A model generated the notes under the pieces. That model saw nothing but the letters and a program-made list of their open reading frames with translations, was not told the DNA's origin and did not search any database. Shown here in pieces: positions 24,103-45,525 of a DNA stretch of 64,000 nucleotides (the first letter of the stretch is position 1; the number at the start of each line of letters is the position of its first letter). This DNA comes from Eledone cirrhosa. Lineage: Eukaryota. The stretch lies in contig OZ024743.1 in assembly GCA_964016885.1 (NCBI GenBank), forward strand, positions 279,992,001 through 280,056,000, written 5' to 3'. The translations under genes and the position numbers were made by a program.

Positions 24103-24189
<87 letters not shown>

Positions 24190-24302
24190 TACTAATGTAC
24201 GTCTGTATACATATATGGATGTACGTATACATATATACTTACATTTAAGTAAGTGCCATACTAAGAGTGAGAAATGAAATTTCGTTTTCATTTTTTTTTC
24301 AA

Positions 24303-24307
<5 letters not shown>
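23691..24307 (+). mobile_element. Retrozyme-like unit: ~100-bp direct terminal repeats around an HHR
   Basis: TACTTACATTTAAGTAAGTGCCATACTAAGAGTGAGAAATGAAATTTCGTTTTCATTTTTTT..CAACTTAT at 23723-23793 and 24236-24307; HHR at 23913-23955. Confidence 0.7.
23913..23955 (+). ncRNA. Minimal type I hammerhead ribozyme
   Basis: ACGGTA-CTGATGA-T-AGCT(AACA)AGCT-T-GAAAC-TA-GTA-CATCGT. Palindromic ACTAGT stem III, GUA triplet, stem I has one mismatch next to the core. Confidence 0.72.
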
Positions 24308-24398
<91 letters not shown>

Positions 24399-24486
24399 TG
24401 TGTGTGTGCCGATACTTTAATATATACATTTATATTTACATATTATGTGCCTGTGTGTGTATTTGTGTATATAGATATAGTTATAG

Positions 24487-24547
<61 letters not shown>

Positions 24548-24576
24548 TATATATATATACATACATATATTTAATA

Positions 24577-24626
<50 letters not shown>

Positions 24627-24820
24627 TATACACATATATGTATATATATATACATATATATATATACATATGTATATATGTACATATATATATACACATA
24701 TGTATATATATATATATATACATACATAAATACACACACACACGTACACACACACACACACACACTTATATATTATATATATATACATATGTGTATATAT
24801 ATATGTATATATATATGTAC

Positions 24821-24852
<32 letters not shown>

Positions 24853-24929
24853 GTATATATATGTATATATATATATATATATGCATATATATATATGTAT
24901 AAATATATATATATATATGTATAAATATA

Positions 24930-24970
<41 letters not shown>

Positions 24971-25078
24971 GTGTATAAATATATATATATATATATACAC
25001 ATATATATATACATATATATACACATATATATATACATATATATATATATACACACATATATATATACATATATATAT

Positions 25079-25124
<46 letters not shown>

Positions 25125-25134
25125 GTATATATAG

Positions 25135-25332
25135 AGAGAGCAAACAGCACGGACACTCTATCTCAAAATTATTTTTGAAAAGCATTTAGAAATGCGCAAC
25201 CGGTAAAAACTTAAAAACTTAAAACCACAACTGAATACTAACCCATACAATCACTAATACTCTTTTATTCCTAATTAAACCATTTTTCAACTGTGAACAA
25301 TTTGTCAGCATTTTCTATTCCGTTTACCAATA
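25135..25332 (+). mobile_element. Short dispersed element carrying a variant hammerhead (UUGAAAA...GCAA core) at 25172-25208
   Basis: TTT-TTGAAAA-GCATT(TAGA)AATGC-GCAAC-CG-GTA-AAA. Copies at 31417-31453(-), 31759-31795(+), 46020-46055(-) and 46879-46914(+). Confidence 0.7.
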
Positions 25333-25362
25333 TATATATATGTATATATATATATATGTATG

Positions 25363-25421
<59 letters not shown>

Positions 25422-25426
25422 GTATG

Positions 25427-25529
<103 letters not shown>

Positions 25530-25554
25530 GTATGTATATATATATATGTATAGG

Positions 25555-25633
<79 letters not shown>

Positions 25634-25778
25634 GTATATATATATATGTATATATATGTATATATATATATGTATATATATATATATGTATGTATATATA
25701 TATATATATATGTATGTATATATATATGTATATATATATATGTATATATGTATGTATATATATATATATATGTGTATG

Positions 25779-25853
<75 letters not shown>

Positions 25854-25988
25854 GTATATATATATATATGTATGTATATATATATATATGTATGTATGTA
25901 TGTATATATATTTATATGTATATATATATATATGTATATATATATATGTATGTATATATATATGTATGTATATATATATATATGTATG

Positions 25989-26038
<50 letters not shown>

Positions 26039-26054
26039 TATAAATATATATATG

Positions 26055-26101
<47 letters not shown>

Positions 26102-26169
26102 ATATATATATATATAAATATATATATATACATATGTATGTATATATATATATATATATATGTATGTAT

Positions 26170-26215
<46 letters not shown>

Positions 26216-26383
26216 ATATATATAAATATATATATATAAATATATGTAGATAAATCTACCAAGAGTTTACGGTAGTGTCCAATCCGTATGAAGAACTCAA
26301 TGTAATCCGGATATCATGGAAAGAAGAGATGAATTCTAAAATCACTTTCGGTGAAAGATAAACGGAATACAGAGTCAAGATAA

Positions 26384-26530
26384 ATTATTTCTGAAGACGG
26401 CATATGTATGTGTTGGTATGTATATTAGATTTGATAGTTTGTATAATTTTGTATAATTTTGTACATAGATCTGTTGAATATGCATGCCAATTCTAACACA
26501 TATATATCCTAGAAACGATCGTTAAATAAT
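26384..26530 (+). ncRNA. Type I hammerhead ribozyme with ~115-nt stem II
   Basis: 7-bp stem I ATTATTT/AAATAAT; CTGAAGA (26391-97); long imperfect hairpin ATATGTATGTGTT...AACACATATATAT; GAAAC-GATC-GTT (26512-23). Confidence 0.78.
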
Positions 26531-26606
26531 GAACTTTTTTTGTTTAATATAAGGAACTGTTTCATTGTTTTATTCATTATTTTTTTAATACTTTATATAA
26601 ATATAA

Positions 26607-26668
<62 letters not shown>

Positions 26669-26691
26669 ATATATGTATATATATATGTATG

Positions 26692-26806
<115 letters not shown>

Positions 26807-26815
26807 ATATATATA

Positions 26816-26905
<90 letters not shown>

Positions 26906-26929
26906 AATATATATGTATGTATATGTATG

Positions 26930-26967
<38 letters not shown>

Positions 26968-26991
26968 AATATATATGTATGTATATGTATG

Positions 26992-27029
<38 letters not shown>

Positions 27030-27041
27030 TAAATATGTATG

Positions 27042-27077
<36 letters not shown>

Positions 27078-27083
27078 AATATG

Positions 27084-27128
<45 letters not shown>

Positions 27129-27174
27129 ATATATATGTATGTATATATATATATATATGTATGTATATATATTT

Positions 27175-27231
<57 letters not shown>

Positions 27232-27246
27232 AATATATATGTATGT

Positions 27247-27331
<85 letters not shown>

Positions 27332-27400
27332 ATAAAGTAAAACTAAAGAGGAAAAAAATATATTTTTCTTCCTCATAATCGTCTCTTTCTCCATGTTTTC

Positions 27401-27443
<43 letters not shown>

Positions 27444-27865
27444 TACAAGTGGGAGCTTAGTAAACTCGAAGCTTTGGCTGTGGGCAAGCAAAGTCGACCT
27501 ACAATAGGAATGAGTTAGCAAAGCAGTCAATCAGGGTAGGTCCTTAGAGTGTTACACACGTGTAAATAGCTTGACAAATTGAACATTGCGGTAGTCAAAA
27601 CCTAACCACACAATACCAAAGTAACGAAAGAACTAATATATATATATAAGAGGAGCGGACGAAGAAAAGTTGAAAACAATAAGAAACATTGCTAAAAGGA
27701 TATGAAAACATGCTCAGTAATTGAAACTATAGAGTAGAAAATATAGAATGGAGTTTAACAATACTCACAAGGAAGTACAGGAAGAAAGACACAAGAATAA
27801 TTAAGAAGTTATATTGATATATATATATATATATTATCTGTTATATTCGTTTGCTATAGTTTGAA

Positions 27866-27921
27866 TACCTGATGATATCACCGGATTCATACTGAACCCG
27901 GTCATTGAAATGATCATAGTA
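27866..27921 (+). ncRNA. Minimal hammerhead ribozyme (same family as 19928)
   Basis: TAC-CTGATGA-TATCACCGG...CCGGTCATT-GAAA-TGATCATA-GTA, followed by the same tail to ~27970 and then (TA)n. Confidence 0.78.
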
Positions 27922-27966
27922 AAATAAACCTTTCAAGGATTTACACTAGTCCAGCCTCCTATTACT

Positions 27967-28018
<52 letters not shown>

Positions 28019-28021
28019 AAT

Positions 28022-28168
<147 letters not shown>

Positions 28169-28179
28169 TGTATATAAAT

Positions 28180-28229
<50 letters not shown>

Positions 28230-28251
28230 ATATATATATATATATACATAC

Positions 28252-28288
<37 letters not shown>

Positions 28289-28479
28289 TACATATATATA
28301 TATGTATATATATATATATACATATATATGTATATATATATATATACATACATATATATATGTATATATATATATATACATACATATATATATATATATA
28401 TGTATGTATATATATACATACATATATATATATGTATATATATATATACATACATACATATATATATGTATATATATAT

Positions 28480-28546
<67 letters not shown>

Positions 28547-28736
28547 TGAATGTATGTGTGTGTTCTGATGGATCATATCAAGGAAATGATAATGAAATTG
28601 GGAGATTATCGGCGATCGATGTAGCTTAAGCCACTAGATTAGAAATGTTGTCGCCTCGAAACGACAACTGGTGAAGATTAAGCATGGAGAATTAAACCTT
28701 ACTCAGACACCAATCTTATTTGGAGTTTTGTTTCTT

Positions 28737-28810
<74 letters not shown>

Positions 28811-28872
28811 TATATATATATGTATGTTGATATGCATTATGTATAAATCATTAGATTGTGGAGTACGTGAGT

Positions 28873-28942
<70 letters not shown>

Positions 28943-28984
28943 GTATATATTTAAATATATATATATGTATATGTATATATTTAA

Positions 28985-29064
<80 letters not shown>

Positions 29065-29068
29065 TTAA

Positions 29069-29099
<31 letters not shown>

Positions 29100-29190
29100 G
29101 TATATATATATGTATTTATATATATATATATTTAAATATATGTACATACATACATACATACATACATACGCATATATATAAGTATGTATA

Positions 29191-29254
<64 letters not shown>

Positions 29255-29789
29255 TTTGTGAGTGTGTGTGATTTTGTGTACAAATATACGTGTATATATA
29301 GTTTTGTTTTTCGTGCGTCTGTTATTTTTTGTGGTTGTTTGTGTGTGTCTTTGTGTATTTGCGTCTTTGTTTACTTGTTTGTTATTGTTGATGTGGCATT
29401 GTCTTCAATATAGTATTAGCTACGCCAACGGTTTGAATGACATCCAGCCATCCCAATCAGGAAACAAACAACAAAAACTAAATCAATTGCAGCTGGCTCG
29501 TTCCACCTTATCGTCTCTCCCACTACCTAGTCCTTACTTTCTTCTAAAGTTAGATACAGACACGAACAACGTATTAGTATGCAAATTCTTTCATGGAAAA
29601 TTAATATAAGCACAAATATACACACACACACACATACATATATATATACACGGGAGTGTATGTTTGCGTATATATATATAGAGGCCACCAGACAGAAACT
29701 TATATATGTATGCATATATATATGTGTGTGTGTGTGTGTGTGTTATGTGTTTGTGCATGTTCACATGTGGATGTATTTTATCCTCAAAA

Positions 29790-42167: not shown

Positions 42168-42267
42168 TTGAGTATTGAAGTTTCCGTTGAAAATTTAAAA
42201 AGTCATAGGAATGAATTGTTTATTATATATTATATATATATATATATATAAAGAAAAAAAATATATA

Positions 42268-42572
42268 TATATAAAGAAAAAAAGATGGAATCGAAAATGC
42301 AACTGGAGTCTTATTTAAAAAAAAATATATATATTTATTTGGTTCCTTTACCGGTTTCGCAGTTCTTTGCTTTTCAAAAGTAGAGTTGAGATGGAGGGTC
42401 TGTGGTTTTTCTTACATCACCAGATGTGAGAAAAACCACAGACCCTCCATCTCAACTCTACTTTTGAAAAGCAGAATAACTGCGAAACTGGTAAAGTAAC
42501 GAAATAAATATATATATATATTTTTAAATAAGACTCCAGTTGCATTTTCGATTTCATCTTTTTTTCTTTATA
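42268..42572. mobile_element. ~300-bp foldback carrying two opposed hammerheads
   Basis: Near-perfect inversion about 42419-42422; HHRs at 42344-42382(-) and 42459-42498(+). Confidence 0.88.
42459..42498 (+). ncRNA. Minimal hammerhead ribozyme, U3:A8 variant
   Basis: TACTT-TTGAAAA-GCAG(AATAA)CTGC-GAAAC-TG-GTA-AAGTA with a perfect 5-bp stem I. The inverted partner has GAAAC-CG-GTA (palindromic ACCGGT). Confidence 0.78.
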
Positions 42573-43393
42573 CTTTCACTCGTGTAGGACACCTCGGTTA
42601 TTTTTCATTTTGTAAAAAAAAAACCCACTTTCTAATATATATATATATTAAAAAACTACATTACCCACTCTACTACCCTAAGTATTGAGTACTTTGGTGC
42701 GTTATGGTCCACCTGGTTCCTTACCACATTTCCTTCGTTATATATATATATATATATATACTTAATACATTAACAGAGAAAGCTAATAGCGATACTCCGA
42801 TCAACTCCCATCTCACTCAACAAACATTAGGATATACTTAAGTATATTCCCAATTATACGTTTGGGGTGCTAACTATATTGTATTATGTGGAAAGTCGGC
42901 TGTATTATTTTATATGAGACATAATTAAATAAATCTCACTTTCCATACGATCGTTTTGTTATAAGATTTCTGCAAGATGGGAGAAATAAGTCCAAGTTAT
43001 GTAGAAGCCTGCATATAATCAACAGATTTATTTGCAGATTGGCCCTTATAACTCATCATTGGAATGCCCAGGCAATAGCAATATAAAAAATTACATTGAT
43101 ATTAACATTCAGCGATATTCACCGTCAGTGCTCGAAGAACCGCTAAGTTTAAAAGTCCAGCAGTCCTTCAAAAAAAATTCTCACACTGTCCCCAAATGGG
43201 AACGGGAGGTTATCGTAAAATATAAAATAATATACACGCAGGTCATTGAACCCTGTTAGGAATCCAAACCACGTGTTGAGAACTCAACTGGATAATAAAA
43301 AAAAAAATATATGTACGTATTACTTAGGTATACATATAAATATTTTCTCAGGCAAAATAACGGACATAAGATACAGGAAGAATCGATCAAATA

Positions 43394-43700
43394 TAGTAAT
43401 AATAATAAATTTGAACACTAAAATCCAAAGAGGGCTCGATAAGGATAAATATATATCAGATATATAAGAACCGTAGAGCAAATATTTATTAAAATAGCAG
43501 ATTAAAGTTTAAGCAAATAATCGCTGCTTTCACACTTAACGGGATCTTCTGAAACTAAAAAGGTCAATCTGTGAACGCAGAAGTAAATATTTCAAAAAAC
43601 GTTGCAACCGAAGGAAGACAGGTAGACGATACTTTGGTTCGTGGAAACGTTCCCTGGCAAAGAACGGGAAAAAAAGAAGATAATACGTAATAATTTGGTA
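43394..43700 (-). repeat. Dispersed repeat family (other pieces at 45010-45478, 45522-45675, 51490-51912, 52153-52245)
   Basis: Shared blocks AAATCCAAAGAGGGCTCGATAAGGATAAAT and CTGCGTTCACAGATTGA...GTGAAAGCA.CGATT...GCTTAAACTTTAATCTG. Confidence 0.85.
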
Positions 43701-43860: not shown

Positions 43861-44126
43861 ATGTTATATGTTATGGCGTATATATTATATATACTGGTAC
43901 ATGTGCATTTGGTTATGTGTATACGTGAGTTTGCGTCTGTGTGAGTATGCGGGTTCGTGCGTATGTAGGGTGTGTGTATGTGTGTACTTTGTATTTTGGT
44001 TGACGTGCGTCCGCGAACATATGTGTATTTAAATGTAGGTATGTGTGTGCGCGCGTTATATACGTACTTATGTGTGTATATTTATATATATTATGTATAC
44101 ACGCACATACACACATATATATATAT

Positions 44127-44781
44127 AGTTTAGGTATGATACATTTTATTACTAATTATATCTAAATGTTTCTTCTCTCTTCATAATGTATTTTTAACTC
44201 TGATACTGGTTCAGTCTAGTTCAAACTGAATTGGTCTGTCCCAGTCATTCATTGAGCAACATCGGTGAAGTTGGCACCCTTAACTCACAGTTGGGTGCGG
44301 ATGCATTCATGTATATATGTGTGTGTCCGCATGTATCTGTGTGTTTCTAAATATATTGTTAATAACTCCCTCTGGTCGAGCAATCTTTGAGGTGTGGGGA
44401 CAACTGGAAAGCTTCCATTACTCATACTTCTCGCCTTCTTCACTACCTCTTCTACGGCCTCGATATGAATACCCCCTCCGCCTCCGTGGTATTTTCTTCG
44501 TGGTTATAGGAGGCTTAGCTCTGTTTCTCGACCGTTATATCGCGTGACTATCTCCCCCTCCGCCTTTTGGGATTCTTTCTCACGTCGTGTAGACGCGTTC
44601 TTGAGACTAGTAAAATGAGGTATCCTCTTGATAAGTCGGCAGACCTCGCAGGGACTCTATATCTTTGATATATTGTTTTTGTTTATGCCACGAAACTACG
44701 TAGTCGAGGAATTTAGGAGCAGTTTAGGTATGATACATTTTATTACTAATTATATCTAAATGTTTCTTCTCTCTTCATAAT
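44127..44781 (+). mobile_element. Retrozyme-like element: 61-bp identical direct terminal repeats, 594-bp unit, internal HHR
   Basis: 44127-44187 is identical to 44721-44781; flanked by TA repeats; no credible ORF; HHR at 44623-44710. Confidence 0.8.
44623..44710 (+). ncRNA. Type I hammerhead ribozyme, U3:A8 variant
   Basis: TCCTC-TTGATAA-GT(C)GGCA...TGCCAC-GAAAC-TACGTA-GTC-GAGGA. Perfect 5-bp stem I, palindromic stem III, GUC triplet (cut after 44705). Confidence 0.82.
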
Positions 44782-45475
44782 ATATATATTAATATATATT
44801 TTTATGTGTATTTGGTGTATACGTTCGTATGTGTGCGGGTACAGGCGTTGCGTGGGTTCTGTATGTTCGTGCGTGTTTTTTTTTGTGCACGTGCTTGTAT
44901 TTGCATACCCATGGCGAGTGTTTTCGCGTATGCTTGTGTACGTACGTATATGGATGCGTGTATGTATATATTTAATTTCAATTACCACTGTATTTTATTT
45001 ACTTTATTCTTAACTCTGAAGCCGAGAATCATTCGGTTTCCTAGATAGAATGTTAGTCTACGACTTCAGTTATACCATTTACGTTGTTTTGTCTTTGCGG
45101 GTAATTGTTTTCTTCGCTCTACATAATGACGTATTATCTTCGTTTTTTTCCGTTCATTGCCAGAGAACGTCTCCATGAACCACCTAATAGAATATTAGTC
45201 TACGTCTTTATTTATACCATAAATGTGGTTTTGTCTTTGCGTGTAATTGTTTTCAACGTACCAAATTATGACGTATTATCTTCGTTTTTTTTTCGTTCTT
45301 TGCCAGGGAACGTTTCCACGAACCAAAGTATCGTCTTCCTGTCTTCCTTCGGTTGCAACGTTTTTTTTTTATATTTACTCCTGCGTTCACAGATTGACTT
45401 TTTTAGCTTCAGAAGATCCCGTTCAGGGTGAAAGCAACGATTCTTTGCTTAAACTTTAATCTGCTATTTTAATAA

Positions 45476-45525
<50 letters not shown>

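Follow-up and report, generated by a model that had tools for sequence, protein, structure and literature searches.

A recent copy in Eledone cirrhosa from a protein-free hammerhead family with Penelope-type insertions, likely spread as a circular RNA

Known relatives and the copy in the window

Animal non-LTR retrozymes are described as non-coding tandem units that carry one type I hammerhead each, lack an LTR, PBS and PPT, have a GC content below 50% and a length of 51–972 bp, and occur as dispersed mobile copies in genomes that also hold Penelope-like elements (PLEs) (PMC7229834; 10.64898/2026.07.22.740005). Here we describe a unit with the same features in a 64,000-nt stretch of the Eledone cirrhosa genome (contig OZ024743.1, positions 279,992,001 to 280,056,000, forward strand; the window). 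Its lack of LTR, PBS and PPT is read from an ORF search, from blastx and from a repeat that is an array overlap, and its dispersal from 128 sites on 19 contigs. Judged by these sequence features, the element is an animal non-LTR retrozyme that would work like a non-autonomous PLE. It differs from described members in its U3-A8 core and long helix II, and neither its pair of fixed 3' ends nor the coupling of arms in its insertions nor its recurrent A>G variants have a counterpart in the accessible parts of the same two sources. Circles have been shown for animal retrozymes, whereas for this unit one is predicted from its genomic copies; and unlike retrozymes that match PLE pLTRs in Xenopus (10.64898/2026.07.22.740005), it has no pLTR parent among the sequences that we searched.

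Neptune-type PLEs (PMC8557442, PMC3846280, PMC11167929) share with the unit partial tandems, an inverted 5'-truncated arm, a tail at one end only, microsatellite targets and a hammerhead upstream of the 3' ends. The unit departs from PLEs in having no ORF, with neither RT nor GIY-YIG, in making up to 7 exact monomer turns and in the length of its tail (~165–170 nt; the tails of described PLEs measure 30–40 bp, and that of the candidate helper discussed below ~67 nt). With the minimal PLE hammerhead of Schistosoma Cercyon (PMC4209133), it has in common the U3-A8 covariation described for Schistosoma PLE hammerheads, a 5-bp helix I, a bulge close to the helix II base and a palindromic helix III that lends itself to folding as a dimer; it differs in its 3-bp helix III, a helix II extension of ~45 nt and its place in a monomer that encodes no protein. 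Plant LTR retrozymes (PMC4918200) are likewise non-autonomous and hammerhead-bearing, with a proposed circular intermediate, but their type III hammerhead, true LTRs, 4-bp TSD and Gypsy helper do not apply to this unit, which has a type I hammerhead and no LTRs. In the publications consulted here, the riding of retrozymes on Penelope enzymes via circular RNA and the origin of Penelope tandems and inverted arms are proposals rather than demonstrations, and the main text of an octopus repeat annotation makes no mention of hammerheads or ribozymes (PMC13282606).

The copy in the window comprises the following parts, from comparison of the repeats, the array survey, the array period, folding and direct reading of the sequence:

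44127..44781, + strand: whole insertion, a single-arm, 5'-truncated array of 1.1 units
44128..44721, + strand: one non-coding, strongly folded 594-nt monomer, taken as unit positions 1–594
44127..44187, + strand: left copy of the 61-bp repeat, the unit start
44721..44781, + strand: right copy of the 61-bp repeat, which opens a further unit and terminates at site A
44115..44127, no strand: TA run at the 5' junction
44782..44800, no strand: TA-rich target at the 3' junction
44623..44710, + strand: predicted type I hammerhead (sequence reading and descriptor) with U3-A8 core, long helix II and palindromic loop 3, cut 44705|44706

The original prediction was of exact 61-bp repeats 594 nt apart, flanked by TA repeats and enclosing no credible ORF, and in these respects it was accurate. 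The two copies are identical, with identity stopping at both edges (repeat family D9, spacing 594); TA runs lie on either side; once the monomer is circularised, its longest ATG frame has 76 aa, and no match to any of 122 PLE-type proteins came up in blastx. Calling them terminal repeats was a mistake, as they are merely the overlap of a 1.1-unit head-to-tail array. The same prediction took their identity as a sign of recent insertion: the recency stands, but identity is no proof of it because it follows from a single template. The window element is a young copy on other grounds, namely a divergence of ~0.27% within arrays of the family and departures from the family at polymorphic columns only.

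In four runs, an empty-site check turned up no junction that omits the element, the flanks being repeats, and target-site duplications are indistinguishable within the TA and minisatellite flanks. The region is rich in simple repeats. Around it lie long inverted repeats (43483–43675 and 45285–45478, 91–96% complementary), either a separate repeat or a nested pair, and a degenerate (TA)n array of 5 kb occupies 24106–29255.

In the predicted hammerhead, stem I pairs 44623–44627 with 44706–44710 (5 bp), and the core at 44628–44634 has U3/A8 where C3/G8 is expected. The base of stem II (44635–44641 with 44686–44691) contains one bulged C and bears a long side arm, GAAA follows at 44692–44695, and stem III, of 3 bp, closes with a palindromic loop, so placed that 44695–44704 is a perfect 10-nt palindrome. 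The predicted cut follows GUC at 44705, 15 nt before the right repeat. The anticipated intact variant hammerhead with a 5-bp stem I is borne out at this position, as type I with a U3/A8 core, and across the family its core is intact in 315 of 318 full units. A descriptor matched the window motif and none of 5000 dinucleotide-shuffled units; the hammerhead fold (−20.3) lies 1.1 kcal/mol above the local minimum (−21.4), the whole 594-nt unit folds with a z score of −6.06 against 20 shuffles, and the window copy itself has one hammerhead only. In a vertebrate survey, cutting in vitro was seen in only one of nine dimers (10.64898/2026.07.22.740005). Other hammerhead families occur in the flanks of the fetched loci, one more of them with a U3-A8 core.

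Could the motif have arisen by chance and the repeat by local duplication? Rfam, in gathering and E-value modes, returned no hammerhead, only microsatellite-driven miRNA noise, and the setting is one of simple repeats, both of which would fit such an origin. The copy data refute it, since some 1000 candidate places match at ~99% identity, and the shuffled units and the conserved core speak against it as well, leaving this explanation with a negligible probability.

Arrays, two fixed 3' ends and the template

Five queries of the 3.0-Gb genome gave 1093, 1188, 518, 371 and 938 candidate places. The best 40 candidates per query were scored and the fetched stretches merged into the 128 sites, which, as top-scoring matches, are biased to young copies. 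The family consists of dispersed head-to-tail arrays, of which the window copy is a 1.1-unit member, as would be left by the partial tandem formation originally proposed; the sites are neither local duplications nor 3' fragments of a coding PLE. The expectation that copies would be circular permutations of one monomer proved right in part: they share one monomer of 590–594 nt with variable 5' ends, but they are not free permutations, because the 3' ends are fixed at two sites. Among 191 arms, 121 exceed one unit and 44 exceed two, to a maximum of 6.9 units, and their 5' ends are distributed round the whole unit. The array ends define three further features:

44187..44191, + strand: site A (unit 60–64), ~76 nt past the predicted cut, a fixed 3' end and putative reverse-transcription start; the window copy uses A at 44781–44785
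44356..44361, + strand: site B (unit 229–234), the second fixed 3' end, used by other copies, with loose TA ends at 44356
44192..44356, + strand: the A-to-B stretch of ~165–170 nt, equivalent of the Penelope 'tail' (tail definition in PMC11167929)

All 196 A or B ends run into at least four TA. Four of the 128 sites, complex or cut by the fetched edge, were set aside for arm counts; in the other 124, 57 are single-arm (40 at A, 17 at B) and 67 are head-to-head. The pairing is strict, with A+B in 64 of the 67, A+A or B+B in none and an odd end in three, which suggests one start site per strand within one complex. Copying of one arm from the other by fold-back was considered and rejected: in 16 of the 64, containment of one arm within its partner is impossible either way, and mirror starts are as frequent as chance predicts (5 against 4.4). 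A 3.7-kb spacing at C1:166.38 Mb, at first a candidate coding element, is a local duplication instead. Arm lengths at two-arm sites are negatively correlated (Spearman −0.33, p 0.008); the search may have selected for this, or two enzymes may compete on one template.

Mobilisation of the PLE type is, in our view, very probable. A different account would derive the unit from an unseen coding PLE that shares its sequence and of which only the pLTR is left, with arrays formed by DNA-level tandem amplification. The match between Xenopus retrozymes and PLE pLTRs gives this some precedent (10.64898/2026.07.22.740005), and the scored copies are only part of the candidates. Against it, none of the 128 sites continues in register into coding PLE sequence, and the unit matched none of 69 PLE loci, themselves a small part of 10,596 GIY-YIG candidates in the genome, so that no parent PLE emerged from that set. 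The arrays, moreover, lie on 19 contigs with distinct 5' ends, and the lineage has kept a monomer of ~595 nt through an older wave, that of the sister family described below. We consider a pLTR remnant very unlikely.

The arms of one site carry the same haplotype, with 5 mismatches at 461 marker comparisons against 27.8% in shuffles (minimum 21.7%), and divergence is 0.27% within arms, 0.25% between arms and 1.01% between sites. There are 27 haplotypes in 53 fully typed sites. Variants sit either in all units of an array or in one unit, and the haplotype common to all units and both arms suggests repeated reading of a single monomer, likely circular; the model proposed in PMC4209133 and PMC7229834 has a ligated monomer copied more than once. 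One contig each in runs X4 and X6 shows the unit as a single closed sequence (620/621 nt, depth ~8, no flanks), an appearance that tandem DNA would share.

The same family and PLE machinery could instead have used a long uncut array transcript, or a cut linear monomer re-entered by jumping, with no covalent circle. Hammerhead cleavage is dispensable for PLE insertion in vitro (PMC11167929), which would suit such a template. So would a mild excess of 5' ends just past the cut (14 of 189 within 25 nt, 8 expected, p 0.03), by which the templates of some copies may have been linear, and at least one array in which the haplotype clearly changes midway (C3:332.68 Mb), a sign of some template switching. 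Set against this are new variants that every unit of an array carries (among the first 87 sites, 16 array-wide variants are private to one site, and only 3 of 129 G-bearing cells are mosaic within an array), which call for a monomer bottleneck, and 336 passes over the predicted cut site with no indel. On balance, an exclusively linear template seems improbable, and a circular monomer is the likely one.

Recurrent A>G variants and RNA structure

Among array-wide variants, A>G makes up 20 of 61 (33%), against 13 of 190 (7%) among single-unit changes (p 1.6e-6), whereas T>C is not enriched among array-wide variants (p 0.35); for these counts, two duplicated sites were omitted and unit columns 183–201 except 197, a TG/TA run, were masked. 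A>G being array-wide with T>C not enriched, the change would precede the repeated copying and fall on the hammerhead-bearing strand. Compared per base, A>G per A exceeds T>C per T (p 0.015). ADAR enzymes prefer a 3' G and avoid a 5' G. At the A>G positions, a 3' G is present in 10 of 20, as against 24 of 134 A's (p 3e-4); depletion of a 5' G (p 0.25) and pairing of the A/G sites in the fold (p 0.20) are not significant. The recurrent positions are the following:

44218, 44391, 44454, 44509, 44604, 44651 and 44719 (44218..44719), + strand: recurrent A/G columns, candidate editing sites, with G in the window copy at 44391, 44509, 44651 and 44719

A>G variants recur on different haplotype backgrounds. 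Four-gamete conflicts affect 14 of 21 A/G pairs, 16 of 42 mixed pairs and 1 of 15 other pairs, even at 7, 10 and 14 nt, and the non-A/G markers are nearly tree-like. An older sister family, used as outgroup, has A at 9 of 11 A/G columns. The A>G changes probably derive from A-to-I editing by ADAR of the folded RNA, read as G and written back into DNA; at title and abstract level, the literature that we searched contains no report of editing written back into retrozymes or PLEs. The excess might otherwise stem from wobble-tolerated selection, template recombination or a DNA-level mutation bias, and some observations favour such a source: most shared variants preserve pairing in the predicted fold, template switching occurs, and the sister family has G at columns 162 and 592. 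Single-unit, DNA-level changes are nonetheless most often G>A, C>T or T>C rather than A>G, the excess is strand-specific, the frequency of conflicts does not grow with distance (p 0.78), and A>G is not in excess among coding PLE copies (8 of their 51 private variants, where A is 41% of bases). We regard an origin other than ADAR as unlikely on this evidence and retain editing as the preferred explanation.

The sister family is ~80% identical to the unit and 90–95% identical among its own copies, with the same hammerhead stems and the same two ends; an example lies at C15:39.627 Mb, and 2703 candidates were counted, the young family included. Its multi-arm sites are a clean A+B in 8 of 19, A with another end in 4 of 19 and complex in 7 of 19. 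Between the young and sister families, 10 of 154 confident pairs are broken against 24.6 expected, as few as in none of 2000 randomisations, the fold being derived from the young unit and so somewhat favouring the paired state. Double compensations between the two families are not significant (264 of 2000 randomisations). By this model of the fold, RNA structure is under selection between the two families.

A candidate helper and a proposed cycle

The window element is a young copy within a non-coding family that bears hammerheads and shows Penelope-type insertions; the family has likely spread as a 594-nt circular RNA, mobilised by a Penelope-like RT/endonuclease acting in trans. A candidate for this enzyme is a very young family with 77 RT-GIY-YIG matches at 98–100%. 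Its protein combines RVT_1 and GIY-YIG domains, separated by a cysteine-rich linker of the kind that Neptune has, and we call it Neptune-like by this linker, not by a tree; its best named relative is a protein of Octopus bimaculoides (76%). The family is high-copy, with a ~5-kb monomer and an unusually long, microsatellite-rich repeat region. Its targets are TA, its predicted hammerhead has a U3-A8 core, and its copies end 3' at two places, 75–85 and 142–155 nt past the cut, of which the first lies at the same post-cut distance as site A. The two ends are paired in five fetched loci and one window copy, and one locally duplicated copy has two like ends. The window copy is a short two-armed insertion at 42250–42650 that retains terminal parts only, with a U3-A8 hammerhead near 42459–42500 and two different 3' ends in TA runs.

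The unit gave no significant alignment with the Neptune-like tail. Since the two have no detectable common sequence, the family is a candidate helper and not a proven parent, and that it is the helper in this genome has, we judge from sequence, about an even chance. In a rotifer, no cross-mobilisation between PLE types is reported (PMC3846280). For an anole PLE in vitro, both target strands are nicked and extended, and the tail is tied to two internal start sites (PMC11167929); a search of the literature at title and abstract level found no paired priming in PLEs. One contig of run X5 joins an inverted piece of a coding PLE tail to the unit at 44654, possibly a mixed two-arm insertion; a search of the own genome with one pattern for such a tail-unit join found none.

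In the cycle that we propose, read-through of an array would give a multimer from which two hammerheads would cut out a monomer, to be ligated into a circle, and the folded RNA would sometimes be A-to-I edited. A dimer of the PLE protein would then nick both strands of a TA run, and copying would start from the same RNA molecule for both strands, at A for one and at B for its opposite, each copy going round the circle for 0.1–7 turns. Short microhomology would join the two cDNAs head to head; alternatively, one of them would be joined to the target, giving single-arm copies like that in the window. In its fullest form, to which we give equal odds of being right or wrong, this would be a viroid-like circular RNA, edited by the host ADAR and copied into the germ line by a single PLE dimer that works simultaneously from two start sites; editing would be the main recurrent source of heritable variation, and each insertion the DNA record of a single edited circle.

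If this is true, the sense strand would template both arms of Penelope inverted insertions. The copies yield countable predictions, including exact start sites, a pairing rule, the template strand and named candidate editing sites on a 594-nt RNA, and an intact candidate enzyme is present in the same genome. Heavy RNA editing is documented in squid (PMC4384741). If the A>G signal is indeed editing, this family would illustrate how edits made in RNA pass into heritable DNA, within a group of animals noted for how heavily they edit.
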